Origin: Minisyncoccota bacterium
Lineage (GTDB): Bacteria; Patescibacteriota; Minisyncoccia; Phycocordibacterales; JABAAK01
Direction of reading: 5' to 3'
NCBI GenBank assembly: GCA_963668425.1
Contig: OY764332.1
Location: 41,241-105,240, forward strand
Length of the DNA: 64,000 nt
Part shown: piece by piece, positions 6,001 through 45,241 of the stretch
Numbering within the stretch: the stretch's first letter is position 1
How the letters are laid out: each line of letters starts with the position of its first letter
Notes under the pieces: generated by a model
Databases searched by the model: none
What the model was told of the DNA's origin: nothing
The model's input: the letters and a program-made list of their open reading frames with translations, nothing else
Position numbers and translations under genes: made by a program

Positions 6001-9000
6001 CTCAAAGAAAAGGCAGAGCTAAGTAATGCTGAAACAGCACTCTCAGGAGCAATATCTTCTTTAAACGAAAGCACGATACGATCTCCTGAAGGAGGAATCT
6101 CTGCGCCGGTAGCAGAGAACATATCTGTTGCTTTGAAAATAAAGGAGCTTGTAGTACTTCTTCCAAAGGCGTCAGTTGCGCGCACATCTACAATGACAGA
6201 GATAGGACTGAGAAAACGGATAGCTAATAACGAGTTTTCGGTAATAGTGTGAATCTGTACGGCACTATCCAAACGTACAGAAGAATCAGATGAGCGAAGC
6301 GTGACGGCATATGTAATCGGAGAAGTATCTTCAAAGAAATTGGCGAGCTGAGCATATCCAGTGTCTACTTGTGCCGAAGAAAGTAATTTTGAATGTTCTG
6401 GAATAGGGTCAACGACAAGACGAGGCGCGCTAAGATCAATGGCAACAGGGATATCAGAGACACGCACAGCAATGTTCCCTACGCGATCTTGAAGAACACG
6501 ACAAAGGTACTTACCATTCTGTGACTCATCAGGCACTTGAGGAATCTCGGTTGTAACACTGCCAGTAAGCCAAGCACCTTCGCCCTCTATCGAGCTGTGC
6601 AATGGGAGAAATGATGCGGTGTCAATAGTAGCAATACAATCACCCGGATCTGCAACAAATCCGTACACGTTATGAGACCATACACCGCTGCCAACATCCA
6701 TTACCTCTCCTGCATCTGTTGCAGGAAGAGTCGTGCCCGACACGCCACTGTTCAACCCAACAATACTTGGAAACGCGGGATTGCTTGGTGCCGACTTGTC
6801 AGCCCCAAACCGAAAAATAAAATGTGGTTGATTACCGATATCATTTCCTGTAAGGATTAACACTTCTTTACGTTGCGAACTTGACTTACCTGTTTCCAAG
6901 ACAAACTGAAAGCCACCATTACCGAGAGCTTCACGGGAAGAAGGGACGACGCGACACTCATCACAGCGAGAAAGATCAATAGTTAGAGCGTGAGGGGAGA
7001 CAGGGTCAGTAATCAAAACGGTGAGGTGCTCAGCAGTAGTCCATTCTCCATTAACAAATACTTCCCCGTCTGGCAAGGTTACCTCTGCGGTAAGTGTGGA
7101 GGAGCGGATGGGGATGATACGGGATTGCGTATATGATATATTCCCTGCATTATCAGCAACTTCATAACAGACCCTCTTATTATTTCGAGCATACACCATG
7201 TAGGCAGGAGTAGTAAATTGTGCACGTGTATCGGAGGAAATATCCTGCTTATCATCAAACCTCTCTGTGGTGCTGTCACATCTATCGGAAGCATCAATAA
7301 GAGCCACACGATAGTATGAGAGCCCTGAGGTGGTATCCTCAAACACTGCGGTTATATCGTGTGACAGTGCTGTAGCAGAAGGCGCGCTAACGTCTGAAAT
7401 GGTAGGAGATTTGGTGTCACGAAGCATTATAAGGGGTCCAAAAAATGAAGGTGGGAAATTGCCTTTAAATACCTGCACGCAGAGAGAATACGTACCATCC
7501 GTTGAAAACGACAATGCGCTTGGAGGAGTGTGCTGATAGGTGCCAGAGGAGAGAGCGCATTCTTCCGGTGGAGTGGAGGAAGGAATAACCGCATACGTGA
7601 TAGTAGGAGAAGCAACGTGTGTGGCAATCCCGCCAATAATTGCTTGTCCGGAATCTGATTCTGAGTTTTTAATAAATCCATCAGAGGCAACACCAAGCAA
7701 CCGTGGTGGCATCTTGAACAACACATCGGAAGATACAGCAATGCGTAACGGAGCAGAATAGACAGGACTAAGAGGTGAGTTTGCAGCTTTAACACAAAGG
7801 TAATAGATGCCGTCAGAAACGAAAGAGACAGCATTTGGAACGGTTTCTTTGTATGTGCCTGTGGAAGCAGTGCAGGTTGTCACAGGAGTGGTTGAGAGAA
7901 CCATTGCGTATGAAAAGGCGGTAGATTCCAATGAAACAACGATGCCGTTAATCACCGGATCTTCACTAAAGCGCTCTGCAAGAGTAATTTTGCCGTCAGA
8001 GGCAACACCACTGAGACGTGGCTCTTTTGTGATAACAATTTCAGAGGAAACAACAAGAGAAAGCTGGCGGGTAGTAGTGTTCCCTGCAACATCAGCTGCC
8101 TGTATTGATACAGATGTTTTTCCTTCCTTTAGAGCGGCAAAAGAAAGAGTGGTGCCATCATCTGAGAGTGACACAGTGGCAATTTCACTATCCTCCACTG
8201 AAGAAAGAGTGAAGTGAGAAGGAGTGGATTCTTTGACAAAGAACTTATGAGGAGAGAGGGTGAAGGAACCCCCTTTCGCCATAGCGACTTGAGAGGAACG
8301 AGCGGTTTTCTTTGGAGCGGTAGTATCTCTCATTATGAAAAATCGAGGTGCATGCCATGTAACAAACCCCGGTTTTGAAAACTCAATACATAGCGCAACG
8401 AGTCCGTTTTTAGTTATGCTGGTAGTGGTAGGGATGTCGGTGCTATATTGATGGTTACTGGACCTTACAAAAGAACACGAAGCGTTTCTATCAGTGCGGG
8501 AGTTAACACTTGAAGCCCTAAAGCGAACAGTAACCCCTTCAGTATCTGCCTTCCCTGAAGTTAGTAGAGGAAGATCAGCGACAACATCAGCAGTACTAAT
8601 ATACCCATCAGCAACGACAGGAGTAAGCGCAGGGTGTTCAGCAATGACAACACGAGGAGCCGTAACAAAAATTGAAATTCTCCTCTTGCTTCTACCAGGA
8701 TTACCGGCAATATCAGTTGCTGCAATCTCCAAAACTGCAGTCCCTAATTGTGAAGAAGGAAGGGCGGCAAGCGTGAGCTGTGACCCAACAAGTGAGATGG
8801 TAACTCTGGCACTCCCCGAAAGCTGCACTACCTTGAAAGTGGATGGCTCGTTAAATTCTCCTGAAATATCAAAAGAAATGGTATCCCCTTTTTCTACACT
8901 ATAGCGTGAAAGAAGTTTCTGCACGGATTGTGGATGCACTGAGTCAAGAATAATCTTGAGAGGTTGAGAATAGGCAGGAGCATACCCTTTCTGAGAGGCA

Positions 9001-9980: not shown

Positions 9981-10103
9981 ACAAAAGAAGGAACTATTTC
10001 AAGTGTAGCATGTACTGAAAGAGAGATTAAAAAAAACGGATGTGGAAAACTGCATATGTGCCATCTGACTCCCCTTCTTTTTTGTTAGGTTAGGGATTGG
10101 TGC

Positions 10104-10136
10104 AAAAAAACACACCTCGTAAAAGAGGTGTGTTTT
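10104..10136 (-). terminator. Rho-independent terminator for the 731-aa gene. It is bidirectional in form (A-tract, stem, loop, stem, T-tract) and separates that gene from the giant gene.
   Basis: aaaaaaa CACACCTC gtaaaa GAGGTGTG tttt. On the minus strand the perfect 8-bp stem is followed by a 7-nt T-run. It lies 85 bp after the stop at 10221. Confidence 0.6.
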
Positions 10137-10220
10137 AACTTTAACCTTCACGTAGTGCTGATAGGATTAGTGAGGGTTAAGGAGGAATAGGAAATCCCCT
10201 CCCCCTTACCTTTCAGGTGC

Positions 10221-12416
10221 CTATTTGCAGATATCTAACCGATCAGGAATGAACTGGACGCGGTTATTGTGCGGGTGTATTATGTTGGCATTATAGACTG
10301 CACCCTGAAACTCAATATAACTATCAGGATTGGCTGCGCAGTTGGAATCACCTGCATGATCAATTTCTATAGTCATGGTCTTATAAGCCCCGGACACACT
10401 ACCAATAGCATTTGTTTGCAGAATAGGGTAAAACTTAGATGGATCGCTTCCAACGTAGGATTGACCAGCAGCTATCGCTCTAACACTATATTTAGAATTG
10501 GTTATTGATCCTATGGGTGCTCCTTTAGTACGAGTAAGATCGGTTACTTTGAACATCTCGCGCCCGGTCTCTAAAGTCACATACGCTTTTCCACCCCGTC
10601 GTTCAATTGAGGTATAGATGTAGTTCCAATCATCGTTGTTGATGATGAATATGTCGACGCTCTGGGTCACGCCGTCAATTTGATCCCTGCTGATCAATGC
10701 CCGCTTTCGGAGTATATTATCATCCTTTATCCCTCCGGAATAAGAAAGAAGGCCGTTCTTAATGCTATAACTGATATCTTCGTATGTGGCCGTGTGGCTT
10801 GTCCTGATGCCGTCAGCTATCTTGACAGTGCTGGGAATCTCACACTTACCTTCTACCCACTCGTCGGACTCATTAAAGACAATAGGCAGTTCGCAAAACG
10901 CTCTTATGAGAATTATATTAAACGGAGTAAACCTATGGACTCTTGTCCAACCTTCTGGTCTGTGCATTCGTATTGCATAGATTCCAACATCCCCATTTGG
11001 ATCAGTTATCATAGTTCCTGAGATGTCAAATATCTTCTCACCCAAGTCATAGACACAACCTCCTATAGAACATCTATCAAATACCCACATACTTTGATCG
11101 GGAGTGAATACACCATTGGAATATGTGCCGTTATACCAGGTAAATTCAGCTCCCCATGCTTCTAATTCAGAAATACCTTCAATTCTGAATGGCGCCTGTG
11201 GAGGAATCTGTTTAACGGATATATCTAGTGTATTCCAGGTCAACCCAAATGACCCCCTAAATTCTTCACCCTCCCTTACGGCAATATTATCGTTCGCAAT
11301 CGGCCCGCCCCCAAATCTTCCGACAATTTCATCGTCAGTGGTTTGGATAAACAGCTGACCTTGAAGGGCGGCAGGAAGATTTACCTCGTGCCTATTCCCG
11401 TCAGTGTATATTTCGTCATTATGATTCCCGAAGACAATCCTGATAGCGCCAGAAGGTTCATCGCCAACTGATGGACGTATGATGATTCTATTAGGATCAG
11501 TGTTACCGTAAGTGATATGAATACCACCGCCAGTGCCAAGTGAGTTACTCCATGCAGTTGATGGAGAATTGAAGAAACAAACTACCCTACCCGCACTCTC
11601 TGGTACGGTAATCGTGTAGACAGGAGTGCCACCAGAAGTCCGCGAAGCAGTCACCTGATTGCAGTTGCCACTAGTATTGCCGGGATTATCTATAACTGTA
11701 AATGGTGCCCCATTCTGTTGCTGTTGCTGTTGTTGTGCTTGCGGCGCTTGGTCAACTACAACGACTTCTGGTGTGGGGTCAGGAGTTGGGTCGGCTTGTG
11801 GCGCAGGATCAGGAGTAGGTTGCGGAATTGGGTCTGCTGTGGCTGCGGCTTTTGCCTTCATACACAGAATGGCGTCAACTACGGCATCCCATCTACCAGA
11901 AGAGTTATGGACTTTCTGGAGTCGCTTTGCCTCGTCAAGAGTAACCACAGTAGCGTCGCTTGCTTGTCCATTAAGGGTGTCGCGGACGCGTGTCCAGCGT
12001 TCAACATGCTCTGCACCGTTTTGGGTCTCGTCAATGTAGCTCTGTACGTTGGCTAGCAGTTCATCGGAGACACAAGAGCCGTTGGCGTTCAAACACAACA
12101 TGGAGCCCAGTACTGGGTCCCATCTCGCTGCCGAAAAGCGACTCCACATGTTGCGAGCTTCGCTTAGCGTGGTTGGTGTTTGGCCGTTGTCCTCGCCGAA
12201 TGCTGCCAGAACTTTCATCCACCTAGCGACATGAACAGGTCCGTGTTGTACCTCTCCCGCCCATGATTTTACATCAGATATCAAGCCATTTGCTACACAT
12301 TGCTGAGTAGGTTGCTGAGTAGAGGCCGAAGTAGGAATTAATAAAGCAAAGAAAGCAAGAGTAATGATAAGCACGGTTGTTACGCTTGCTAACCGCCATG
12401 TTTTTAAATTTTTCAT
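10221..12416 (-). CDS. Secreted hypothetical protein (731 aa): signal peptide, two ~70-aa Trp/Arg-containing repeats, a Pro/Gln-rich linker with a Q7 run, and a ~480-aa C-terminal domain of unknown function.
   Basis: N-terminus MKNLKTWRLASVTTVLIITLAFFALLIPTSAST. Repeats of the form ...HV.RW..V....G........T..EA......S..RWD.V... occur at about residues 45-115 and 120-190. The linker reads PIPQPTPDPAPQADPTPDPTPE...QAQQQQQQQ (CAA/CAG repeat at 11716-11740). No family was recognised by eye. Confidence 0.65.
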   Translation of the reverse strand: MKNLKTWRLASVTTVLIITLAFFALLIPTSASTQQPTQQCVANGLISDVKSWAGEVQHGPVHVARWMKVLAAFGEDNGQTPTTLSEARNMWSRFSAARWDPVLGSMLCLNANGSCVSDELLANVQSYIDETQNGAEHVERWTRVRDTLNGQASDATVVTLDEAKRLQKVHNSSGRWDAVVDAILCMKAKAAATADPIPQPTPDPAPQADPTPDPTPEVVVVDQAPQAQQQQQQQNGAPFTVIDNPGNTSGNCNQVTASRTSGGTPVYTITVPESAGRVVCFFNSPSTAWSNSLGTGGGIHITYGNTDPNRIIIRPSVGDEPSGAIRIVFGNHNDEIYTDGNRHEVNLPAALQGQLFIQTTDDEIVGRFGGGPIANDNIAVREGEEFRGSFGLTWNTLDISVKQIPPQAPFRIEGISELEAWGAEFTWYNGTYSNGVFTPDQSMWVFDRCSIGGCVYDLGEKIFDISGTMITDPNGDVGIYAIRMHRPEGWTRVHRFTPFNIILIRAFCELPIVFNESDEWVEGKCEIPSTVKIADGIRTSHTATYEDISYSIKNGLLSYSGGIKDDNILRKRALISRDQIDGVTQSVDIFIINNDDWNYIYTSIERRGGKAYVTLETGREMFKVTDLTRTKGAPIGSITNSKYSVRAIAAGQSYVGSDPSKFYPILQTNAIGSVSGAYKTMTIEIDHAGDSNCAANPDSYIEFQGAVYNANIIHPHNNRVQFIPDRLDICK

Positions 12417-12490
12417 ACGTTAATTTTTTATGCTATATAATGTTTTATAATCCAATTTTATTATACTGCAGGTTCATTTTTTTTCGTTTA

Positions 12491-12501
12491 CCCCCCCCCC
12501 C
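12491..12501. repeat. Homopolymeric C11 tract (G11 on the minus strand) in the promoter/5' region of the 731-aa secreted-protein gene.
   Basis: ttttcgttta ccccccccccc gacattgtg. It sits 75-85 bp upstream of the ATG at 12416 on the coding strand. Confidence 0.9.
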
Positions 12502-12744
12502 GACATTGTGGAAAACTTATTGAAAACTGTTCAGCATGCTATATACTCTTTGCTCTCTTTTTAGGGTATATTGCACTGAACAGTATGGGCGTAAGCAAAA
12601 TATCCTGTATATTGACAGCAATATGAATACCTTATATGATATAGTTACGATTTAGTAGTTATGACAATGATTTATTTTTATGTATGTCATATTTTACTTT
12701 TTTTTACACACGGACAAATTAGCAATTTTTCTATATAAGTAGGA

Positions 12745-13665
12745 CTAGTGTGGGCGGTAGACCACTATTCCTGGTTTGTTTTTGAGGTAGGTGAGGAAGT
12801 CGTCGTCAATGACCTGCTGTGCTTTTTCTCTGGAGGAAGCGTGGCGTAGGTATGTTCCCCTGCTGTTTTTGATAAAGATACCGGTGTGCGTCACATCAAG
12901 TCCGTCAATGTCTGTGTATATTCCAATGTAGTCACCGGTGCGAAGGTTCTTCATGCTCTCGTCGGTAATAGCAGTAGACGGTATGTAGTTGATTGTACGA
13001 GACAGTATCGGAATTCCTTCTAGAAAAACACTGCCGTCTTTTTTCTGATTTAATTGCTTTTTAACAGGTATCGCCACATTACCCCCGACCTCTTTTGTCA
13101 CATCAGATACTTGATCACTGTTATACTTCACCCAGTCAGAAAAGAAGTGGTTTCTGTATTGAAACTCTACAATTCCGGATTTATATCGGGTGTGCTGTAA
13201 TGCGTTCAGAAAGGTGTCATATGAATCTGACAGGCGGGCTGCTTCAACATAATCAATATACGTAAAGCAATCCAACCCGGCGAGATGGACGGTGAGCTTT
13301 TCACGTGTTTTTGCACTTCCTACGAGGGTGTTCCCTTCATACGGGGTGCCTAAAAATTTCTCTGAGATGTGAGTAATTTGTTCTCCGATATCAGATAGGT
13401 GTGTGGATCCCTGTATTACACCAGAGAGTGTTTTTTTGGTCCAATTGCCAAGGTTTGTCTGTATGGCGTTCCTTGCCATTAGTCGCTCTCTTGCATGCAC
13501 TCCTGCTGGTATTGGGTCACCATGTTCCTGTGGTTCTATCTTGGCAAGCATAGAGAGCATGCTATATGCTATCCAGCTGATACCAATCAACATGCCCACC
13601 ATTCCTAAAAGTATTACTTTTGCTTTCATACTTATAGCGTACACTATGCCTGTCTTACACTGCAT
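12745..13665 (-). CDS. Membrane-anchored putative cell-wall hydrolase, NlpC/P60-superfamily (DUF1460-like, Cys/His papain-like).
   Basis: N-terminal TM segment MKAKVILLGMVGMLIGISWIAY. A GLDCFTYIDYVEAARL segment (candidate catalytic Cys) and ...DVTHTGIFIKNSRGTYLRHAS (candidate His) resemble DUF1460/amidase-like proteins. The assignment is from memory of the family. Confidence 0.4.
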   Translation of the reverse strand: MQCKTGIVYAISMKAKVILLGMVGMLIGISWIAYSMLSMLAKIEPQEHGDPIPAGVHARERLMARNAIQTNLGNWTKKTLSGVIQGSTHLSDIGEQITHISEKFLGTPYEGNTLVGSAKTREKLTVHLAGLDCFTYIDYVEAARLSDSYDTFLNALQHTRYKSGIVEFQYRNHFFSDWVKYNSDQVSDVTKEVGGNVAIPVKKQLNQKKDGSVFLEGIPILSRTINYIPSTAITDESMKNLRTGDYIGIYTDIDGLDVTHTGIFIKNSRGTYLRHASSREKAQQVIDDDFLTYLKNKPGIVVYRPH

Positions 13666-13732
13666 ATATTCTGGTTTTAGATTGCTGTATACTGGTTTTG
13701 TTTGTTATTAAGATGCTATCGTACAGTTATAT

Positions 13733-14599
13733 ATGAAGAAGAATATTAGTATTTTTACTCACGCAAAAAAGATATTTTTTGTGACCTATGTTCGTATTGT
13801 TGCAATTTTGATTGTGAGTGTTGCAGCGACTTTTCTAGTGGGTATTGGATCGGTGTCTGAGTTATTCTACTATGTAACTGGTTTGAATTATTTTACACCT
13901 GACTTTTTCTCAGTTTTCTTGGACACGTCTTCAGGTGCTCCGTGGATGGTGCCACTTGGTATTAGTATTAGCATTCTTGCGATGTTTTTACTCTTACTTA
14001 TTACTTTCGTCACTTCTGCCACGACTGCTTTTGTGCTGGTTCGTAATACATCATTCCTGGAATCAATCAAGCTTGGGGTTACCAAGGGCTTGCGATCTAT
14101 TCCGGCGCAAGCGTTGTTTCTTGCTCTGCTGGTTGTGAGTAGTATACCGAGCTTTCTACTTATACTTCTTTCTTTGAGAATAGCAAATGATGCAAATGGC
14201 GCATTGGCGTTGTTCTGTATACTGTTAGGAGCGCTTCTTCTTCTTTTGCCGTTTTTTATTGGCTTGCGATCTGTATTTGTGGTATTTATTTGGCTGGAAA
14301 ATCAAAAAGCGAGGGCATGGTCTATTGTGAAAAAATCCTTTGTACTTACTCAAGGTACTGTTATTTGGATGATGGTGCTTGCTATTGTTTTGGCTGGAGC
14401 TGGAGCGATGATTATTCACCCGTTGCTTGTTTTACTGCTATCCACGCTGGCTGTGTTGCCGTCCGGAGACACGCTCTCGGCGATTGTTGATCAGATTATT
14501 TCTATCTTCCTTCTTACACCGATTATGTACGCATTATTCTACACGTTTTACGTGCAGGCAAAAAAACGAGCTGTCAGTATTAAGAAAAGGAGTGTATAG
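13733..14599 (+). CDS. Polytopic integral membrane protein, hypothetical.
   Basis: 288-aa ORF with six or more hydrophobic segments. Its stop (14597-14599) is 2 nt before the M16 peptidase start at 14602, which suggests an operon. Confidence 0.55.
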   Translation: MKKNISIFTHAKKIFFVTYVRIVAILIVSVAATFLVGIGSVSELFYYVTGLNYFTPDFFSVFLDTSSGAPWMVPLGISISILAMFLLLLITFVTSATTAFVLVRNTSFLESIKLGVTKGLRSIPAQALFLALLVVSSIPSFLLILLSLRIANDANGALALFCILLGALLLLLPFFIGLRSVFVVFIWLENQKARAWSIVKKSFVLTQGTVIWMMVLAIVLAGAGAMIIHPLLVLLLSTLAVLPSGDTLSAIVDQIISIFLLTPIMYALFYTFYVQAKKRAVSIKKRSV

Positions 14600-14601
14600 C
14601 T

Positions 14602-15876
14602 ATGACTGAAACACAGACATTAGAGAACGGTATTACCGTATTGTTGAGTCCGGATGATCGGGCGGAGACGGTTTGCGTGCTGGTTGGTGTGGCAATTGGC
14701 GCGAATCATGAGGCAGGAAATGAATATGGCTTGGCGCATTTTTTTGAGCATATGTGCTTTAAGGGGACAAAGACCTATCCTACCAATGCAGAGCTTGTAA
14801 CACGCATGGATGAATCTGGGATTGTGGCGAATGCGTATACTGGCAGAGAGTACACTGCCTATTATATGTCTGGGCGGGCGGAACGGCTTCAGGATATACT
14901 GTGCTTAACTGCTGATATTTTCTTGCACTCTTTGTTTCCTGCAAATGAGTTGGCTAAAGAAAAAAAAGTAATCACTGAAGAGATAGTGATGTATCGGGAT
15001 GATCCGCTATCACGAGCATTTGATGAGGTGAGTCAATTGCTATTTCATGGTACTGTAGCTGAACACCCTGTCTTGGGGACGGCAGAATCAGTTTCTTCAT
15101 TTTCCCGGGACGATTTTGTTCGCTTTTTACAAAAGCATTACACGACAGCAAACACTATTATCTCTATAGCTGGAAAATTTGATCGTGATGCCGTGTTGCA
15201 GGAGTTAGAAAAACTATATGATAGTGCGATAGTGGGTCAGCAGACCGCGCAGGTTGTTATACCGCCTGTTTTGCCAAAAGAAAACCACCGCTCTGTGGTG
15301 CGGAGTGACTTAGAACAAACTCACATTGTTATAGGTGGCTATGCGCCGTCGTACAACAGCGTGGATCGGTATACGGCTGAGGTGTTTGATGTGCTATTCG
15401 GTGGATCTATGAGCTCTAGGTTGTTTTTCCGGGTACGGGAAAAGTTGGGGGCGTGTTACACCATCAAGACCTACGTAGATTTTATGACCCATGCTGGAGA
15501 ATTTTCTATCTACACTGGTATTGCCGGCAGGAGGATGCCAGAGGTGCTGGAAGCAATTGCTGATGAATGTGCACTTATCAAAAAAACACCGGTGCCTGAC
15601 GCGGAGCTGCAAAAAGCAAAGGAGTTCCTTCTCGGGCTGTATGCGGTACAGCAGGAAAGTAAAAATAGTATTGCGACTGAGCAAATGCATGCCTGTGCGC
15701 AAGGTGGCAAGACGGAAGATGGTGAGGAGTATAAGCGGGATATTTTGTCTGTTACATCTGAGGATGTTCAGCGTGTCGCCACTACTATTTTAGATAGCAA
15801 AAAAATGAGCACTTGTTATGTGTCCAATAGTGCAATTGAAAAGTCCATTACTGAGAATTTCTATAGTGGATTTTGA
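14602..15876 (+). CDS. M16-family (pitrilysin/insulinase-like) zinc peptidase.
   Basis: GLAHFFEHMCFKGTKTY matches the inverted zinc-binding HxxEH motif of M16 peptidases. The 424-aa length is typical. Confidence 0.85.
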   Translation: MTETQTLENGITVLLSPDDRAETVCVLVGVAIGANHEAGNEYGLAHFFEHMCFKGTKTYPTNAELVTRMDESGIVANAYTGREYTAYYMSGRAERLQDILCLTADIFLHSLFPANELAKEKKVITEEIVMYRDDPLSRAFDEVSQLLFHGTVAEHPVLGTAESVSSFSRDDFVRFLQKHYTTANTIISIAGKFDRDAVLQELEKLYDSAIVGQQTAQVVIPPVLPKENHRSVVRSDLEQTHIVIGGYAPSYNSVDRYTAEVFDVLFGGSMSSRLFFRVREKLGACYTIKTYVDFMTHAGEFSIYTGIAGRRMPEVLEAIADECALIKKTPVPDAELQKAKEFLLGLYAVQQESKNSIATEQMHACAQGGKTEDGEEYKRDILSVTSEDVQRVATTILDSKKMSTCYVSNSAIEKSITENFYSGF

Positions 15877-36674: not shown

Positions 36675-37683
36675 AATTGTACATCTCGTCTTCGGTTCCT
36701 TCTGTCTCCCCAATATCCTCTTCCTCTTCAAGAGTGATGGTTGTCACTGCGTCTGTACTGGTACTACCCTGCTCTGCTCCAGATGCATCTTCTAGTTTAT
36801 TGATAATGCCTTCCAAATCTTGTCCAGAGAAATAATCAATTACGATTTTGCCACCGGTCTCTCCTTGTGAGCGGATATGCACTCGTGTCTCTAGAAAACC
36901 TTCCAATACTGATTGTGCTTTTTGTACATATGGATCATGCTCAATTTTTCGTGCGCGGTTTTTTGCTTGCCGTCGCGCGATGAGCTCTGAATCCCGCACT
37001 GTTATTCTTCGATTTACAATTTCGTCAAATAATGCTCGTTGATCATCGGGGGTCTCCACCAACATTAGCAATGGTCTGGTATGCCCTTCCGATATTTTTT
37101 TATCCGTTACCGCCTGAATCATGTCCTCTGGCAGTGTTAGGAGGCGTATACTGTTTGATATGTATTCCCTACTACGACTCATCCGCTGCGCTACTTCGGT
37201 GTGCGTCATATTAAAATCTTCAATGAGCTGCTTGAATGCACGTGCTCGATCAATAGGGTTCAAATCATCCCGTTCAAGGTTTTCTATCATTGCTAATTCA
37301 AGTCGTATGTTATTTTCAGATATATCAACCCTGATTACTGCTGGCACTTCGGAGAGCCCGGCGATTTTTGATGCACGCAATCGTCGCTCTCCTGCGATAA
37401 GTTCGTATCGGGCTGACATATCACCTGTATCAGCAACGTCCTCTTTTTTTGTGACCACTAATGGCTGCAATACTCCATATCGCCGAATTGATTGTGCTAA
37501 GCTTTGTAATTTACCATCTTCAAACTCTTTTCTAGGTTGAAACGGATTTGGGTCAATTTTGTCAACTGATAGCCAGAATACTGACGGCTGGCTGTTATTA
37601 CCTGTATTCTGCACTATACTTTCCTCCATATAGTATGCAGTATACAGTATTCTTGTTATTCGTATATTGCTGGGCGGACACAA
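36655..37683 (-). CDS. parB: ParB/Spo0J-family partition protein. No adjacent parA.
   Basis: ParB box LIAGERRLRASKIAGLSEVPAVIRV, HTH region, and an acidic C-terminal tail. The start is probably an internal Met (MEESIVQ). The 3' end overlaps the rel 3' end by 20 bp (convergent). Confidence 0.85.
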   Translation of the reverse strand: MCPPSNIRITRILYTAYYMEESIVQNTGNNSQPSVFWLSVDKIDPNPFQPRKEFEDGKLQSLAQSIRRYGVLQPLVVTKKEDVADTGDMSARYELIAGERRLRASKIAGLSEVPAVIRVDISENNIRLELAMIENLERDDLNPIDRARAFKQLIEDFNMTHTEVAQRMSRSREYISNSIRLLTLPEDMIQAVTDKKISEGHTRPLLMLVETPDDQRALFDEIVNRRITVRDSELIARRQAKNRARKIEHDPYVQKAQSVLEGFLETRVHIRSQGETGGKIVIDYFSGQDLEGIINKLEDASGAEQGSTSTDAVTTITLEEEEDIGETEGTEDEMYNFKNFSL

Positions 37684-37819
37684 GAGGCATTCATTCTATA
37701 CTACCGATCTTCCGTTTATCCCTACCTACTTCCCTGCGTTATTTCTTTCCTGTGGTGCTGTATACTGCTCTGTGTAGGATTGTTCCTATAACAAATTATT
37801 AAGATATGATATTTAACCT

Positions 37820-38464: not shown

Positions 38465-38514
38465 CTGAACACAAAGATGAAACGCAAAAAATATTTTTTG
38501 CGCGACATCATAAG

Positions 38515-38560
38515 AAAAACCCACCACGTTCCGTAAAAAGAATGTGGTGGTTTTCTTTTG
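38515..38560 (+). terminator. Rho-independent terminator.
   Basis: CCACCAC gttccgtaaaaagaat GTGGTGG ttttctttt follows the 37820..38464 gene. An AT palindrome gcaaaaaatattttttgc (38484-38501) lies just before it. Confidence 0.45.
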
Positions 38561-38638: not shown

Positions 38639-39538
38639 TTAGTATGCTTTCACACACGCCACAACTTCGCTATCAGGTCCTATGTTGTACGATGATCCTT
38701 GGACAAGAGGATTGACATCATACATGTTTAAATATTTTAATATCTTGATAAGATCAAAACTTTCAGTTTGTGAGTACACTGTACTTACGGAATTTATAAA
38801 AGATCCACTGTTTCTTTGTGGCAACATAAAATCCTCTGAGAGACAATTCTTTTCTAATATATTCTTATTAAAATACTCAACTGTCTTTTTATGTATATCA
38901 GTATATAACACCTCACCTTCACGCTGATCTCCATGCGCTAATTGATTTCTCATTTTCCAGGCCTTATCTTTGAGATCTTTTCCCAAAATTTCTTTAAGTA
39001 TCTCATCTTTATCTCCCTTACTCTTCGCCAGTGCTTCTAATGCAAAGAACATCAACGATAATTTTCCAATATAATTGTGTGTCATTGATGCATCTGCCCA
39101 ATATAAATAAAACTCCTCTGACACTCTCTGCTCACTCAATTCTTTCAATATAGGGAGAGTTGTGAGGTGGTTGAAGCTATTCCCAACGTTTCTATATAGC
39201 GCCCTCCAAAGAATTGCATGACCTGCTCCCTCTTTATAACAGACAGTTCCATACTGTTTTTCCACGGATGTTTGTGCTATGAATATTATTTTTGGCAACC
39301 ACTGATCCACCTCTTTAGAAAATTCCTTTAGTGCCATCTTGTGATTTTCTCCTTTAAATTCACCGAAAACTGCAATCCTATTTTTAGATATTGAGCAAAA
39401 GTTAAGATTGCCAATGGGCAATACGCTTTTAGGGTCAGGAGCATTTTTATAGCTTTGGTAATTTTCTCCACAGAAGTCAATCGAGCTCTGGTAACTTCGT
39501 GCAATACGATATGTATTCATATTTTTATACTGTACCAC
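38639..39538 (-). CDS. Hypothetical protein with a HEPN-like Rx4H motif (Abi-like candidate).
   Basis: ...KAWKMRNQLAHGDQREGE contains R-x4-H-G. The protein is predicted helical and lies in the defence islet next to the restriction-modification genes. Confidence 0.35.
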   Translation of the reverse strand: MVQYKNMNTYRIARSYQSSIDFCGENYQSYKNAPDPKSVLPIGNLNFCSISKNRIAVFGEFKGENHKMALKEFSKEVDQWLPKIIFIAQTSVEKQYGTVCYKEGAGHAILWRALYRNVGNSFNHLTTLPILKELSEQRVSEEFYLYWADASMTHNYIGKLSLMFFALEALAKSKGDKDEILKEILGKDLKDKAWKMRNQLAHGDQREGEVLYTDIHKKTVEYFNKNILEKNCLSEDFMLPQRNSGSFINSVSTVYSQTESFDLIKILKYLNMYDVNPLVQGSSYNIGPDSEVVACVKAY

Positions 39539-39588
39539 ACAGTACTCTATTTTTTATTTGCTAAAAGATAAATGAAGATGTTATTACA

Positions 39589-40014
39589 CTACTCCAAACG
39601 TTTTGAGTTTATTGACTTATGTAACTCTATGTACTCACTAACTGGACCAATTTTCATTTCCAAACCTTCTGTTCCTGCTGTACTTAGGTATATTCTGGCA
39701 ACGCCAAGCATTCTTTCTGCAACATTTTGTTTATAATAAACGTTTTTAATATCTGAATAATTCGTGTCAACAAAATCTCTTGATACAAAACTAAATAACC
39801 TACTCACTCTCTTGTTCGTTACTGCAAAATGAGTACATCGCACCTGTACTTCTATCACAATCACAATTATTAGCGGAATAATGATTGTCCAGCAGAGGAC
39901 TATTGCAATAAGATATCGCACCCAAAAAATCCTTCGTGGATGTTTGTATATTTTTTCAATTTTTTCACCGTCAACAAGATGTTTTTTAATACAATCTGGT
40001 ATATCTTTTTTCAT
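39589..40014 (-). CDS. Membrane protein with a bacterial PH domain (bPH_2 / YdbS-YdbT-like).
   Basis: EKIEKIYKHPRRIFWVRYLIAIVLCWTIIIPLIIVIVI is a TM hairpin, followed by ...THFAVTNKRV...IKNVYYKQNVAERMLGVARIY. This is the characteristic DUF304/bPH_2 layout. Confidence 0.6.
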   Translation of the reverse strand: MKKDIPDCIKKHLVDGEKIEKIYKHPRRIFWVRYLIAIVLCWTIIIPLIIVIVIEVQVRCTHFAVTNKRVSRLFSFVSRDFVDTNYSDIKNVYYKQNVAERMLGVARIYLSTAGTEGLEMKIGPVSEYIELHKSINSKRLE

Positions 40015-40117
40015 ACTGTACTACTATTGTACACATTAAATCTGAAGCTCTTCAGCACAATAAGTTTTACAGGTCTTTGCAAATAATATATAAGTAGGAG
40101 ATTGTACTACATATCAA

Positions 40118-40951
40118 CTACAGAATCACTTTTTGTTTTTCGTAGAGCATTGGGAGAGTATTTTGCCTCATGCGGAATTTGGTGCCGTGGTTGTGTCTGG
40201 TACGAGCATCAAAATCAATAAGTATCTTCCCCTCTTCCAGCGCTTTCAGAAATCCTGTGAAAGTGAATTTCTGCAACATCATAATTTTTGTATAATGGTA
40301 GTGTTCTTTGTTGCGTATCTTTTTTACTTCCGCCTGTACATAAAAAGTATTGAGCAGTTTTGTCCCAGCTGTATGCTCTAAGTCGTCAAACCCCCAATAC
40401 GGTTGCGGGTCAAACTCATCTAGTCCTGCGCGTTTTTTGACGGATGCAAGCCATTGTTTATGCCGAACGTCAACACTCCCAGCATCAAAAGAAACAGCTA
40501 CTTTCTGGTTTTTTCGATCAATCTTCACCATAAACCCACGATCGCTACGTGATTGACCATGTATGGTCACACGAAAACTCATCTCATTTTTTGGGTACCT
40601 TCCGCCGCTTTCCCTGTGTCTCCAGCCGTATAAGGGGAGGAGTACTTGTGGCACAAGTCGTAGTGCGCGAGGTGATGGTTCACAATGAAACAGTGTTGTA
40701 AGCGAGGAGGAATTGACACGTTGCGTCTTTAATTCCCACTCTGCAGCATTTGGTATAGGCAAATTATTCTCTTCAATGCCGAGCAAGTCCTCAAGCGTGT
40801 TGCCAACACCGCCATCGTTACCGTGCCGCGTGTTTGGTACCCACTCCATTTCTACAATCTTTTTTAACTTTTCTGTTAGCCCTCTTTTTGTATATATCTT
40901 TTGCTTTTTTACTCTCATACCTGAAGAAGGAGTTTTGGTTGAGATTGACAT
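40118..40951 (-). CDS. Putative type II restriction endonuclease, MutH/MvaI/BcnI-like PD-(D/E)xK fold.
   Basis: ...VGNTLEDLLGIEENNLPIPNAAEWELKTQR gives D...ExK, like the MutH DLGD...ELK catalytic segment. It overlaps the upstream methyltransferase by 37 bp on the same strand. Length is 277 aa. Confidence 0.45.
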   Translation of the reverse strand: MSISTKTPSSGMRVKKQKIYTKRGLTEKLKKIVEMEWVPNTRHGNDGGVGNTLEDLLGIEENNLPIPNAAEWELKTQRVNSSSLTTLFHCEPSPRALRLVPQVLLPLYGWRHRESGGRYPKNEMSFRVTIHGQSRSDRGFMVKIDRKNQKVAVSFDAGSVDVRHKQWLASVKKRAGLDEFDPQPYWGFDDLEHTAGTKLLNTFYVQAEVKKIRNKEHYHYTKIMMLQKFTFTGFLKALEEGKILIDFDARTRHNHGTKFRMRQNTLPMLYEKQKVIL

Positions 40952-41664
40952 TGTTTGATTCTTTGTTTTGCCATCTCACAGTATTCTGGGGAAATATCAA
41001 TGCCGATATAATCTCTTTGTAAATTTACTGCTGAAACTGCCACTGTACCTGAACCCATAAATGGATCTAAGACAACTTGTGCGCTGGTTGAGGATATAAT
41101 ACGTTCTATTAAGCCAGATGGAAACGCAGCTGGATGGCCATTCTTCATTTCTTGAGTAAACTCCCACACATCACCACATCCGTTTGCTTTTGGCAGTAAT
41201 TTGAACTCTGGCTTTGCGATGAGGTAGATTACTTCGTAGGTAGGTAAGAAGTATCCTGGATTAAAATTAAAACCGCCCTTTCTACGCCAGATAATGATTT
41301 GGCGAACTGGAAAACCTGCTACAATATCTTGCCGATCCTGTAGTAAACCGCCCTGCACACGCCACTTATGGTTATAGAAAATTGCACCATCTTCAGGAAT
41401 AAGCCGCATCATCTCAGCTAGGCAGTTTCGTTGCCACTGTACATATTTCTCATGAGGCATACAGTCATCGTAATGCGAGTAACCATTTTGTAGTTTGGCA
41501 TTTGCCCATTTACCACCATTACCATTTTTTAGACCGTTGCCAGTAGAGTTTTTGATGTTGTATGGTGGCGAAGTGACCACCAAATCAATCGATTCGCTTG
41601 GTATTTGTTTCATAGCATCCAACACATCACCGCAAATAATGGTATTTAAAAACTTCTTTTTCAT
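40915..41664 (-). CDS. Beta-class amino-DNA methyltransferase (N4-cytosine or N6-adenine; the SPPY motif favours N4C).
   Basis: Motif IV DLVVTSPPYN precedes motif I VLDPFMGSGTVAV (beta permutation). C-terminal ...DYIGIDISPEYCEMAKQRI. Length is 249 aa. Confidence 0.9.
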   Translation of the reverse strand: MKKKFLNTIICGDVLDAMKQIPSESIDLVVTSPPYNIKNSTGNGLKNGNGGKWANAKLQNGYSHYDDCMPHEKYVQWQRNCLAEMMRLIPEDGAIFYNHKWRVQGGLLQDRQDIVAGFPVRQIIIWRRKGGFNFNPGYFLPTYEVIYLIAKPEFKLLPKANGCGDVWEFTQEMKNGHPAAFPSGLIERIISSTSAQVVLDPFMGSGTVAVSAVNLQRDYIGIDISPEYCEMAKQRIKQCQSQPKLLLQV

Positions 41665-41856
41665 GTTAGTTTTGACTATCTCTTATGTATTTTAGTATAC
41701 CAGTATCACTGAAGCACTCTGTACTGCCGGCAGAATTTTAATATTTTTGGAGGAATACTTAATCAAAATTTACTTGGGCTAGGGATTGCCTATATTGTTG
41801 GAGCAAATAATGTGAGAAAACAACTGCTATGGAATATTACTTACTATGAGATTGTG

Positions 41857-41927
41857 TGCGGGTAGGGAGAATCGAACTCCCGTTTTGGCCTTGGGAAGGC
41901 CACGTCATACCACTAAACCATACCCGC
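41857..41927 (-). tRNA. tRNA-Gly (anticodon CCC), CCA not encoded.
   Basis: Reverse complement GCGGGTA-TG-GTTT-AGTGGTA-TGAC-G-TGGCC-TTCCCAA-GGCCA-AAAC-GGGAG-TTCGATT-CTCCC-TACCCGC-A. Confidence 0.8.
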
Positions 41928-42024
41928 GTAATGAGCAAACAAATCAAGAAACGAATGTTTTTTGTTTGCGCTGCGAATGAACAATTACTATCAGTATATC
42001 GCCTGTTTTTTAAGATGCTACTGC

Positions 42025-42909
42025 TTATTCTGTAGTGGTGAGCAGGTGCTGCTTGAAAAAGTCAGAGCAGGCAGTGCCACTGTTGCAGATGAGCAGGTAC
42101 TCAAGATTGTTATCCTGCAATAGCTTTGGAGTGGATTGTGGTGGTGTCGCGCAGGCGATAGTTGCAAAAACATCGGCTGCCAGTGCAGTTTCTGCAATGA
42201 TGTGAGCGGATATCTCACTGGTGTGTTCAGCAATGATGTGATGGTGTGCTGTGTCGGATTTGCGCCAACGGCGTTTATGTGTGCTTGAGCCGGCGAACCC
42301 CTGGTTTGTAAGAGGCACTTTTGCAATGCTGTTTTTTTGTTTAGTCGGATGTTCAATGAAAACGTCAATAGGAGAGTTATCAGGAAGTGTGGTTGCATAT
42401 ATATCACCACCACCGTTTACTAGGAAGTGTTTGATTCTAAGGTCTGTCTGTAGCATATTGGCTACCTCATCAATAAGCCACCCTTTTCCAAAACCGCCAA
42501 GGTCAACAGATCCCCGATGTAGTGTGATTTGTTTTTTATCTATTATGAGATCAATGTCTGGATTTGCAGGTGCTGTGCTGTCATTTGAGCGTACTGTTTG
42601 TGATGCCCCATACCCACGAGCAACTTGTGTGTGGGCAGATAGGAAATTGAACATGCCTTTTGTGTCTTTGTAGAGTTTTTTCCCGAATTGCAACAGAGCG
42701 ATAAGTTCGTCAGTAGGATTTTCAAGAATGCCTGTTCTGTTGAGTTTCCCTATAAAGGAAGTATTTAAAAAGCGTGAGTATTGCTTCTCAAAAACAGTAA
42801 GGCGTTTTGTGATGCAGTCAGTAACTTCCTTTTCTCTTTCCTCTGGTGCATCAAATAGGTCAAACCACCACAGTGTTCCTAGTGCCGCGATTTCTTTAAT
42901 TCGTATCAT
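42025..42909 (-). CDS. apbE: FAD:protein FMN transferase (ApbE family).
   Basis: SVDLGGFGKGWLIDEVA matches the ApbE DLGG(I/F)xKGxxxD signature. Length is 294 aa. It is the last gene of a three-gene minus-strand operon; the upstream gene ends 1 bp inside it. Confidence 0.75.
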   Translation of the reverse strand: MIRIKEIAALGTLWWFDLFDAPEEREKEVTDCITKRLTVFEKQYSRFLNTSFIGKLNRTGILENPTDELIALLQFGKKLYKDTKGMFNFLSAHTQVARGYGASQTVRSNDSTAPANPDIDLIIDKKQITLHRGSVDLGGFGKGWLIDEVANMLQTDLRIKHFLVNGGGDIYATTLPDNSPIDVFIEHPTKQKNSIAKVPLTNQGFAGSSTHKRRWRKSDTAHHHIIAEHTSEISAHIIAETALAADVFATIACATPPQSTPKLLQDNNLEYLLICNSGTACSDFFKQHLLTTTE

Positions 42910-43424
42910 TATAGAGATGCGTCTGATGCAATATCTGCTAATGCTTCATTAAAGGCAACAGTGGTCAGTGATGCGCCACCGACCCGTGCTAGGTCAAGAT
43001 CGTCTATCTCTACACCAAGTACCAGTTGCTCATATGCCCCATCAAACCCTGTGTGGCTAGGTGTTTTTGCCTCCGCGTCATCGTAGAGCACATCTGCTGC
43101 GGTGATGACATCGTTATTGATAGTCAATGTAACAGAGATATTGTGCTGTACACGTTTTGGTGTGAAATATGCTGCGTCTGCGGTGTATGTGCCGTTGTTA
43201 TAGGTGTTTTTTTCTGCGGAGATGGTGTCTGCTTCCCTGTCGGACGTGGTTGTGTATTCTACCGGCGGATCTAGGGGCTGATCTATGGGCGATTGCTTGT
43301 TTGGAAATACAAAAAATAGGAGGCCGGCAGCTGCGCCAATGATAACGATGATAATGAGTGCGATGGGCATATGCGATATATGACTGTGTGATGTAGTATA
43401 CCACGGAAAAGTTGTTGCAGTCAT
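42909..43424 (-). CDS. Extracytoplasmic FMN-binding-domain protein (NqrC/RnfG-like FMN_bind), a candidate ApbE flavinylation substrate.
   Basis: N-terminal TM/signal MPIALIIIVIIGAAAGLLFFVF. C-terminal ...AYEQLVLGVEIDDLDLARVGGASLTTVAFNEALADI carries a [ST]GA[ST]-like flavinylation-type motif (GGAS). Confidence 0.6.
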   Translation of the reverse strand: MTATTFPWYTTSHSHISHMPIALIIIVIIGAAAGLLFFVFPNKQSPIDQPLDPPVEYTTTSDREADTISAEKNTYNNGTYTADAAYFTPKRVQHNISVTLTINNDVITAADVLYDDAEAKTPSHTGFDGAYEQLVLGVEIDDLDLARVGGASLTTVAFNEALADIASDASL

Positions 43425-44938
43425 GCCAGTCCCGGGAAAAAGTCACGTATGATGTTTTCTTTTGACACCTTACTATTTTTGAGCAGCAGTGAATATGCAC
43501 GCACCATTTCGGACGGCCCTGAAAGATACCATACTCGCTCTTGATAGTCGGGGGTATGCTCTTTAATACTGCCTTCCGTGAGAAATCCATGCATGTACCC
43601 GCTTCTCTTCTCTTCTGCTAACACATGCACTACCTTGCACCATCCAGCATCAGCAAGTGAGGTGAAGATCTCTCGGTATGCGATGTCCTCGTAGGTGTTG
43701 TTACAGTAGAACAAAACGATATCTCGTGGAATATTCTGTTGCTTGATATGACTGAAATGACTCAGAAATGGAGTAATGCCGATGCCGCCTGCGACAAACG
43801 CAAGCTTTGCCTTGGTATCTTTTGGTAAAAGAAAATCACCGGCACGTTGACTGCCAATGATGTGATCTCCTGGTTTTAGTTTTTGCAGTGCTTGCTTGTA
43901 TGTGCTTCCTTTTTCAGAAAACCGTACCGCCATGCGCAGAGTACTTTCATGTGGTGCGGAGGCAATAGTAAAGTAACGTCTGATACCACGGCTATCTGGC
44001 TTTTTATGAGGTAGTGTCCATTCAAGATACTGTCCGGCATGAAACTGCATATCAGCCGGTTTTCTAAAAATAAATTCTTTTGTGTTTTTAGTAATTTCTT
44101 TTACTTTGATGAGCGCTGGGTGTATTTTTTGGCGTAGAGAAAATGGATAGAAGGCGAGGTTGCCGATAATTAGTGCGAGTTCTGGAGACATTGCTATATA
44201 CGGTGCAAAAAAAGTGGCGCTGGATAATCCGCCGACCAGTGCACCATACCACCGTTGCAATTTCTTGGTTGGCGGGGTGGTAAATGGCTCGGTCAGCATA
44301 AAAAATGCAAGGAACAATATTGGCCATGAGGTAAAGAAGGTTGGTATAGCAGAGAACGTGTTAGTACCAAGTCGCCATGCTTCAAATATATATACAACAA
44401 ATGCAGTGCCCACACACCAGCACACGAGGTTCCACCGTCGTATCTTCATTACCACAAGAGACCCTGCTGCCAGCAGTGGTACAAATAGCCATGGAGTCCC
44501 TATCCACCATGTCGCCTCAACAATTCCAGGTGCACTCAGTGCAAGCGCGCCAAATGCTGCAGGGTTAAAAATGTGCTGCTTTTTCCATGCAAAGAGAAAT
44601 TTTGAACCGATCGCAATGAAGGTAACAGCACTGATGACCCATTGTCCAGACAGTGTGGGTGCAGGGACAAAAAGGAAAAAGATAATCAGTGCTGTTATTA
44701 TTGCCGAGCCATGATTTGCGGATACACGCCATAGCCGAGCAAGTGCTACATTACTTATCATAGCAACACCAAGCGCAGTAGCAAGTGAAGCTGTCTGATC
44801 AATGAAACTGTACGGCACTTTCCCTATCACTCCAAACACTAAACTTGTTGCGACTAAAAAATACAGCGCGAGTGTAACTGTGCGGTACATACCTACCCCG
44901 TCTAACCGCTTTCGTATGGTGTGTGCAATAGCAATCAT
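43421..44938 (-). CDS. Membrane oxidoreductase: N-terminal polytopic NQR2/RnfD-like domain fused to a C-terminal FNR-like FAD/NAD(P)H-binding domain.
   Basis: Eight or more TM helices carrying KKQHIFNPAAFGAL (RnfD/NqrB-like FNPA segment). The C-terminal part has RRYFTIASAP (RxYS FAD-binding motif) and KLAFVAGGIGITPF (NAD(P)H-binding GGxGxxP). It overlaps the FMN-binding gene by 4 bp. Confidence 0.65.
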   Translation of the reverse strand: MIAIAHTIRKRLDGVGMYRTVTLALYFLVATSLVFGVIGKVPYSFIDQTASLATALGVAMISNVALARLWRVSANHGSAIITALIIFFLFVPAPTLSGQWVISAVTFIAIGSKFLFAWKKQHIFNPAAFGALALSAPGIVEATWWIGTPWLFVPLLAAGSLVVMKIRRWNLVCWCVGTAFVVYIFEAWRLGTNTFSAIPTFFTSWPILFLAFFMLTEPFTTPPTKKLQRWYGALVGGLSSATFFAPYIAMSPELALIIGNLAFYPFSLRQKIHPALIKVKEITKNTKEFIFRKPADMQFHAGQYLEWTLPHKKPDSRGIRRYFTIASAPHESTLRMAVRFSEKGSTYKQALQKLKPGDHIIGSQRAGDFLLPKDTKAKLAFVAGGIGITPFLSHFSHIKQQNIPRDIVLFYCNNTYEDIAYREIFTSLADAGWCKVVHVLAEEKRSGYMHGFLTEGSIKEHTPDYQERVWYLSGPSEMVRAYSLLLKNSKVSKENIIRDFFPGLA

Positions 44939-45241
44939 GCTATTTGTAGTATAGCGTTATAGGAAGGTTTGAATTTACTATAAAGAAGATGTATACTACT
45001 AGAGAAGAGGTATTGCATATTCTATGATTTTTTCTTTTTGGAAGGATAAAAATGGTGGTAAAAAGGATGGTGGAGCAATATCACCTGCAGAGTAGGCATC
45101 TAGGGATTTTGTAAATATGACGGCAAGAGATCATAAAAAATTGATGAAGAAAGTTATCAGAAAGGCCTCAGAGGATCAAATGAAAATTTTGAGGAGTTAG
45201 CATGAAGTGGGTAATAGCATTGTGGTACCATATCAAATGAT

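Follow-up and report, generated by a model that had tools for sequence, protein, structure and literature searches.

An MvaI/BcnI-type restriction-modification pair beside a candidate HEPN-type gene of a rare family in a Minisyncoccota bacterium

The block and its borders

The window analyzed here is a 64,000-nucleotide stretch of the genome of a Minisyncoccota bacterium (contig OY764332.1, positions 41,241 to 105,240). Four neighboring genes on its minus strand encode, in the direction of reading, a DNA methyltransferase, a nuclease, a small membrane-anchored protein with a bPH_2 domain and a 293-aa protein of a rare, unannotated family (Table 1). The four open reading frames (ORFs) listed in a first-pass annotation, which had presented them as a defence islet, were all present. 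The block is probably a composite of independent pieces, namely a restriction-modification (R-M) module, the variable slot that holds it, a resident 293-aa gene and a bPH_2 passenger, rather than one four-gene system.

Table 1. Genes and flanking features of the block (window coordinates)
Feature	Coordinates	Strand	Remarks
Methyltransferase gene	40915..41664	-	249 aa; PF01555
MvaI/BcnI-family type IIP nuclease gene	40118..40918	-	likely 266 aa from Met12; longest ORF to 40951, 277 aa
bPH_2 small membrane-anchored protein gene	39589..40014	-	141 aa; PF03703
293-aa protein gene (rare unannotated family)	38639..39520	-	longest ORF from GTG to 39538, 299 aa
tRNA-Gly(ccc), upstream border of the variable slot	41856..41927	-	ARAGORN; Rfam tRNA 65.9 bits
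Back-to-back terminator-like hairpins, 3' end of the block	38482..38550		consensus scan

The intergenic gaps inside the block are 103 bp and 68 bp long. The GC content is 40.5% in the methyltransferase gene, 43.4% in the nuclease gene, 33.1% in the bPH_2 gene and 35.9% in the 299-aa ORF, against 43.5% in the whole window. Most relatives of the accessory genes are from Patescibacteria. The first-pass annotation had described the block as flanked by terminators and a tRNA-Gly gene. The tRNA was there, and a consensus scan placed terminator-like hairpins at the 3' end only, on the plus strand at 38521-38550 (11 pairs) and on the minus strand at 38503-38482 (9 pairs), between the convergent 293-aa and 214-aa genes. 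No minus-strand hairpin of this kind was found by the scan between tRNA-Gly and the methyltransferase gene, or in either internal gap, and tRNA-Gly was the only structured RNA detected.

The methyltransferase-nuclease pair

The 249-aa methyltransferase matched the N6_N4_Mtase profile PF01555 (E=2e-39, 136 bits against a cut-off of 26.7) and the PADLOC model MTase_II PDLC03305 (E=1e-117). The order of its motifs, with SPPY ahead of FxGxG as first described, was confirmed by reading the sequence: TSPPY (near residue 31) precedes FMGSG (near residue 202), as in the beta class. Its best solved relatives, 8s9n and 8s9m, are named 'DNA cytosine-N4 methyltransferase' and aligned over the full length (E=7e-33), whereas solved adenine methylases scored 4e-20 or weaker. 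The enzyme is a beta-class methylase, probably N4-cytosine-specific, and would be expected to methylate N4 of cytosine and not N6 of adenine.

The nuclease matched the MvaI_BcnI profile PF15515 along almost its entire length (E=3e-65, 220.8 bits against a cut-off of 25; residues 27-270, profile positions 2-227 of 227), bearing out the family assignment that had been proposed for the 277-aa ORF product. It also matched the PADLOC model REase_II (E=8e-78) and the sequences of R.MvaI (2oa9; E=1e-16) and R.BcnI (E=2e-6). The single PADLOC model PDLC03305, labeled 'MTase_II' and 513 positions long, matches the methylase with positions 9-243 and the nuclease with positions 254-506, so that the model must derive from a sequence of this family in which methylase and nuclease are fused or concatenated.

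Homologs of the nuclease begin to align at residues 12-19 of the 277-aa ORF, and the gene call in a sibling genome is 266 aa long; translation therefore probably starts at Met12, giving a product of 266 aa. With this start, the stop codon of the methylase and the start codon of the nuclease share an ATGA overlap of 4 bp at 40915-40918 (...CAG GTA TGA / ATG AGA GTA). The overlap of 37 bp originally reported for the two genes holds for the longest ORF only, and the real overlap is likely to be these 4 bp. Residues of the nuclease are numbered below as in the 277-aa ORF.

The catalytic residues of MvaI are Glu36, Asp50, Glu55 and Lys57, of which Asp50 ligates both metal ions (PMC1874612). In alignments these four correspond to Glu54, Asn68, Glu73 and Lys75 of the nuclease. 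Asn68 is also aligned with Asp55 of BcnI, so that the canonical catalytic aspartate is replaced and the MvaI set is incomplete, with Glu54, Glu73 and Lys75 present. A 'D...EWELK' segment had earlier been likened to the D-(x)n-ExK active site; the aspartate of that segment is not the catalytic one, as the equivalent of Asp50 and Asp55 is Asn68. Of 150 family representatives, 58 have Asn and 52 have Asp at position 68, and Glu73 and Lys75 are nearly invariant. The pentad Glu54-Asn68-Glu71-Glu73-Lys75 (ENEEK) is identical in all of the 80 closest genomic homologs, and position 71 is acidic in 54 of the 58 Asn-type members compared with 22 of the 52 Asp-type members.

From these alignments, Asn68 is seen to be a conserved trait of a sub-lineage and not a lesion, and it argues against a canonical site but not against membership of the family. 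Because Glu71 is nearly invariant once the metal-bridging aspartate is Asn, it probably supplies a carboxylate in the Asn sub-lineage that compensates for the lost one. Active-site plasticity of this kind, in which a carboxylate is relocated, is known among PD-(D/E)XK enzymes; no description of it was found for the MvaI/BcnI family. An Asn-for-Asp site with a co-varying glutamate thus poses a testable question about the catalytic plasticity of monomeric PD-(D/E)XK nucleases. Internal stop codons were present in 5 of the 80 nuclease homolog matches (L006-L085), which may be pseudogenes or may contain sequencing errors.

Comparison with R.MvaI and R.BcnI otherwise revealed a close likeness in organization. 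The nuclease has a full-length Pfam match and a direct match to the sequence of the MvaI structure; it keeps the glutamate, the Glu-x-Lys motif and the two-lobe length; and it is paired with a beta-class SPPY methylase whose nearest solved relatives are N4-cytosine methylases. Its size and its single-domain build fit the monomeric mechanism of nicking twice (PMC1874612, PMC5766183). It differs from R.MvaI in the residue that bridges both metals, Asp50 there and Asn68 here with Glu71 fixed, and in its low identity to that enzyme (E=1e-16).

The gene neighborhood of the pair was examined in the best 80 of at least 586 loci with relatives, for which one genome per species was scanned, by tblastn of the four window proteins against the loci with 6-kb flanks. 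In this sample the nuclease relatives have 66-78% identity, and their sources include Patescibacteria, DPANN archaea and Bacteroidales. A methylase gene lies directly upstream of the nuclease gene in 79 of the 80 loci, the exception being at a contig edge, and neither a bPH_2 relative nor a relative of the 299-aa ORF product was found by tblastn in any of the 80 loci or their 6-kb flanks. These results show the pair to be a two-gene module that is autonomous and highly mobile.

The Pfam, PADLOC and PDB matches, together with the pairing in 79 of 80 loci, give good support to a complete type II R-M pair of the MvaI/BcnI type, with a methylase of the N4-cytosine SPPY type, as the first-pass annotation had predicted. 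That annotation had also named the outcome that would count against it, an orphan methyltransferase next to proteins with neither a PD-(D/E)xK fold nor HEPN similarity; the methyltransferase is not such an orphan. As a member of a known family the pair is unremarkable, apart from an active-site variant of mild interest. Its relatives occur in bacteria and in metagenome-assembled genomes of DPANN and other archaea at about 70-75% identity, which implies recent inter-domain transfer, and their presence in at least 586 species genomes places the pair among the more promiscuous R-M modules of ultra-small microbes.

The avoidance of candidate recognition sites was also examined. CCWGG has an observed/expected ratio of 0.62 in the window, and of 0.70 in R-M loci against 0.57 in control loci; for CCSGG the ratio is 0.86. 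Site avoidance was uninformative about a CCWGG or CCSGG specificity, as the control loci are as depleted as the R-M loci. AGNCT is strongly under-represented, with 10 sites against 115 expected in the window (positions 1-64000; AGACT/AGTCT 6 against 68, AGCCT/AGGCT 4 against 47) and 2 against 57 in the sibling-strain locus L116 (positions 1-20882). It was rejected as the site of the nuclease, since 795 kb around the 80 close homologs showed no avoidance (ratio 0.88), which implies a different, lineage-specific R-M activity with an AGNCT-type site. TCGA, GGCC, AGCT and GAATTC are likewise depleted in the window.

The 293-aa family

The last gene of the block has an ATG six codons downstream of the start of its longest ORF, at which the database entry P0001 also begins, and its product most likely starts there and is 293 aa long rather than 299 aa. 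The family is rare: the single sequence retrieved 7 hits, and a profile of 20 members retrieved 72 clusters. All are hypothetical proteins with no Pfam domain, and one carries the JGI label DUF86/YutE, which is the name of a HEPN family. No relatives were found in IMG/VR viral contigs, so a viral origin of the family was set aside. Searches of Pfam, NCBIfam, PADLOC and PHROGs were made with single proteins and with 7 or 20 family members; nothing exceeded the threshold in Pfam, NCBIfam or PHROGs, and PADLOC gave no hit on the 20 members save two unrelated weak ones.

The family was aligned using 20 sequences that are 24-62% identical to the window protein. The R-x4-H-G motif that had been reported is present (RNQLAHG in the window; consensus GLRHRLVHGEY) and is invariant in the 20 members as R191-[N/H]-x-L-x-H196-G197. 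Upstream of it, E162-x3-[KR] is conserved, with an invariant E162 (ALEALAK, ALEALIR, AIESIVK, AVESIVR) and K166 in the window protein. The hallmarks of HEPN proteins are R-x4-6-H with a polar residue after the arginine and E-x3-[KR] in the upstream helix (PMC3710099), and both are present in the family. Further conserved motifs are PQR at 234-236, YW at 140-141 and Q83. In an AlphaFold2 model (pLDDT 73, pTM 0.74), the protein is predicted to have an N-terminal alpha/beta domain (residues ~1-106) and a helical domain (~118-222) in which the two HEPN motifs occupy consecutive helices. The protein is a candidate HEPN-type RNase, and may have metal-independent RNase activity.

The contexts of the gene in other genomes were informative. 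In type I systems it lies in the interval from hsdM to hsdS, and stop codons overlap or abut the start codons that follow (L089 and four near-identical copies, L091, L098/L099); the full order in L089 is HsdR, DUF3800, HsdM, the 293-aa relative and HsdS, the DUF3800 gene lying at 5557-6186 between hsdR and hsdM. In the type III locus L103 (2201-9375) the order is Mod, the relative, PRiA4_ORF3, RhuM/Fic and Res, with three accessory genes inserted, and in L087 the relative stands between an N6_N4 methylase and ResIII. Type II neighbors comprise an EcoRI-type methylase followed by the relative (L096/L097), XhoI with an Eco57I-type methylase one gene away (L117), Tsp45I with a methylase one gene away (L002) and a HaeII-type nuclease gene that directly adjoins the homolog (L003). 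A D12-class methylase lies three genes upstream in L101. In L105 (6244-7767), as well as in L106, L115 and probably L095 (1-336), a 507-aa fusion of a LexA DNA-binding domain, a Peptidase_S24 domain and an N6_N4 DNA methyltransferase is encoded divergently from the relative.

No partner gene is conserved across these loci: the upstream genes of 271-335 aa are non-homologous, except for the related pair in L095 and L101. The first-pass annotation had known of no link between R-M pairs and either the 299-aa or the bPH_2 protein; for the former a link is real, with its family recurring in R-M operons of types I, II and III, and for the latter none emerged. Three features of these loci are recorded in passing. 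The fusion in L105 combines a repressor of the SOS type with a methylase, which is unusual as an architecture. At L117 (575-1687), next to the XhoI R-M pair, a 370-aa gene has a sub-threshold HEPN_Apea signal (19.1 bits, E=0.002) and could be a second HEPN-like gene at that locus. A 396-aa RVT_1 reverse transcriptase gene, which may be defence-associated, lies 1 kb downstream of the closest non-self 293-aa homolog (L001, 6172-7362).

An arrangement in which a gene is embedded in an R-M operon, with RhuM or Fic genes co-resident, has been described for PrrC and other HEPN families (PMC3710099). The 293-aa family shares Rx4H and Ex3[KR] with the R-M-embedded HEPN proteins of that survey (PrrC/EcoprrI, AbiJ, AbiU2, ApeA/BMEI1217), and its relatives lie inside type I and type III operons, sometimes with RhuM/Fic genes, as at PrrC-type loci (PMC3710099). 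The differences are also clear. The 293-aa protein has no ABC-ATPase domain detectable with Pfam or NCBIfam, unlike PrrC and RloC; its N-terminal part is predicted to be a novel alpha/beta domain of ~106 residues, unlike the beta-rich ApeA-NTD1 of ~300 aa (PMC3710099); and it has no HEPN profile at threshold and no PADLOC hit, unlike ApeA and other HEPN families. Unlike embedded PrrC-type genes, the window gene stands beside a type II pair with one gene in between, and embedding is seen only in its relatives. By analogy with these systems, the protein is probably an R-M-linked second-line effector, which would be a known concept in an undescribed family. Being rare, unannotated in all libraries tested and found repeatedly in R-M operons, the family is a candidate for a new R-M-coupled second-line effector, for which R191, H196 and E162 are mutational targets.

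Relationship of the four genes

The first-pass annotation had treated the four genes as one islet and had proposed checking their co-occurrence, and as a co-occurring unit they did not hold together: none of the 80 R-M loci contained a relative of either other gene, and synteny with a related species broke within the block. Between the window and the sibling strain L116, which has 96-98% nucleotide identity and is of the same species, collinearity extends over tRNA-Gly, the four genes and the 214-aa gene. In the related species of L003 (74-83% identity), synteny runs through DnaE, MsrA, RelA, ParB, the 214-aa gene and the 293-aa gene, and homology runs as far as window position 39539, at the 5' end of this last gene's longest ORF. 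Past the break, L003 has a NERD gene and a HaeII nuclease gene that is truncated, where the window has the bPH_2, nuclease and methylase genes. The 293-aa gene thus keeps its position beside the 214-aa gene in both L003 and L116, and the break implies that it is resident, whereas the slot that extends from it to tRNA-Gly carries interchangeable cargo. In this part of L003 (1060-2724), the HaeII-type gene covers profile positions 131-338 of 338 and so misses the N-terminal third, no methylase is in view, and the 293-aa homolog is split into ORFs of 104 aa and 174 aa, which suggests a decaying islet or assembly errors.

The bPH_2 assignment of the 141-aa protein was upheld (PF03703, E=6e-9, 36.5 bits against a cut-off of 22), and the protein also matched phrog_3707 (E=2e-13). 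The two transmembrane helices attributed to it were not evident; it has one continuous hydrophobic stretch of ~27 residues (29-56). It resembles the membrane-flanked PH proteins YdbS and YdbT (PF03703) in having the domain above threshold behind an N-terminal hydrophobic anchor, and differs from them in having a single stretch instead of two clear transmembrane helices. Its sole close relative in 5.8 billion clusters, P0159 (58% identity), is encoded between Band_7 and RuvX genes. No link to the R-M pair or to the 293-aa gene was detected in the 80 R-M loci or in the context of this homolog, neither of which gave any defence association, and nothing pertinent was found in the literature on bPH proteins in defence. 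As no relative occurs in the 80 R-M loci and the only close homolog lies in a housekeeping context, the gene looks like an unrelated passenger.

In the interpretation favored here, the methyltransferase and the nuclease would form a translationally coupled type IIP module. The beta-class methylase would make N4-methylcytosine, shielding host DNA, and the monomeric nuclease, judging from the structures and biochemistry of MvaI and BcnI, would cut a 5-bp pseudopalindrome that is unmodified, flipping after it has nicked the first strand so as to nick the second. The nuclease belongs to a large sub-lineage in which the metal-bridging aspartate is Asn, and Glu71 would provide the carboxylate instead. 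The module occupies the variable slot between tRNA-Gly and the resident 293-aa gene. By analogy with PrrC and the R-M-embedded HEPN proteins, the 293-aa protein would most likely serve as a second-line endoRNase, inactive as long as restriction functions and set free by infection or by the disabling of restriction, and the bPH_2 protein would have no part in the system.

Several observations weigh against this interpretation. HEPN_Apea scored below threshold with the 293-aa family (14.7 against 24.4 bits), with one of the 20 members matching; a PDB search with the family profile was empty; and Foldseek found nothing significant for the full model or for the helical domain, the HEPN toxins among its results reaching only E=6-9 with a template-modeling score of ~0.3. 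The description of the protein as HEPN-like thus stands at the level of the two conserved motifs and was not confirmed by the profile and fold searches. The linkage to R-M genes in about 12 of the 22 distinct family loci is a hand count made without a formal background model. About 10 of the 22 have no R-M gene in view, with contexts that comprise a reverse transcriptase (L001), recombinases or an integrase (L108, L112) and housekeeping genes (L118, L119), several contigs being too short to judge. In the window, the bPH_2 gene separates the 293-aa gene from the R-M pair, and the terminator-free internal gaps leave co-transcription of the four genes, and hence some coupling, possible.

It is nevertheless highly improbable that the four genes together make up a single integrated defence operon, with the R-M pair, the bPH membrane protein and a HEPN-like effector acting jointly. 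Such an operon would account for the shared strand, the short gaps of 103 and 68 bp, the lack of hairpins in the internal intergenic regions and the four-gene order in L116; but L116 is of the same species, so this conservation weighs little, and the 80 R-M loci without a bPH_2 or 293-aa relative within 6 kb, the absence of a bPH gene or an MvaI-type pair from the other contexts of the 293-aa family, the housekeeping neighbors of the bPH homolog and the synteny break in L003 between the 293-aa gene and the cargo all oppose it. Another alternative is that the 293-aa gene is an independent single-gene defence or toxin gene, whose proximity to R-M genes reflects clustering in defence islands or mobile elements without functional coupling. 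This is possible but unlikely: the stand-alone contexts listed above, the lack of a conserved partner and the heterogeneity of the adjoining R-M types are what it would predict, yet several divergent loci place the gene inside an operon, either between mod and res or in an hsdM-hsdS interval where stop and start codons overlap or abut, an embedding tighter than island co-location that matches PrrC and other R-M-embedded HEPN genes.

Doubtful also, though to be taken seriously, is the view that the 293-aa protein is not a HEPN RNase and uses R-x4-H-G for other chemistry or for binding, for example as a subunit that regulates or scaffolds R-M complexes. The failure of profile and fold searches to match any HEPN family significantly, and conserved motifs without a HEPN counterpart (PQR 234-236, YW 140-141, Q83), favor this view, against which stand Ex3[KR] and R-[NH]-x3-H in consecutive helices of an all-alpha domain, a gene context typical of HEPN families and weak HEPN_Apea and DUF86 signals. 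As for the nuclease, it is improbable that the change from Asp to Asn has left it catalytically dead, and the methyltransferase in effect an orphan with a decayed partner. The alignment of Asn68 with residues that include the MvaI ligand of both metals, and the internal stops in 5 of the 80 homolog matches, would fit such decay; however, Asn68 is fixed together with Glu54, Glu71, Glu73 and Lys75 in all 80 close homologs, which span different phyla and are near full length (248-277 residues), the pairing with a methylase is kept in 79 of the 80, and Asn is found in 58 of the 114 aligned family representatives. The selective conservation of Glu71 in Asn-type members suggests compensation and is unlike the pattern of a pseudogene.

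If the favored interpretation of a composite block with a second-line RNase is carried further, a more speculative proposal can be made, which is offered tentatively. The 293-aa family may be an undescribed, type-agnostic 'restriction guard': a compact RNase of HEPN-like type, equipped with a novel sensor domain at its N terminus, that would join R-M systems of type I, II or III and act once restriction has been bypassed or inhibited. As a separate matter, and with the same reserve, Asn-type MvaI/BcnI enzymes may use a carboxylate relocated to Glu71, which would be an undescribed active-site variant of their fold.

Some further differences and neighbors were observed around these loci. In L086, at 9581-14934 and ~1 kb downstream of the housekeeping cluster of the bPH homolog, there are a Shedu-type SduA_C gene and a pair consisting of a methylase and ResIII/YagJ; a DUF3800 gene also lies near the bPH homolog. 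Compared with L116, the window has an extra 3.2 kb at 41981-45203, between tRNA-Gly and tRNA-Met, that encodes an ApbE-like protein, a 171-aa protein and a 505-aa membrane/FAD-type protein. Conversely, L116 has an extra 3.2 kb, with a 263-aa gene, a sigma-70 gene and a CTP synthase gene, where the window has ~100 bp (37656-37763).

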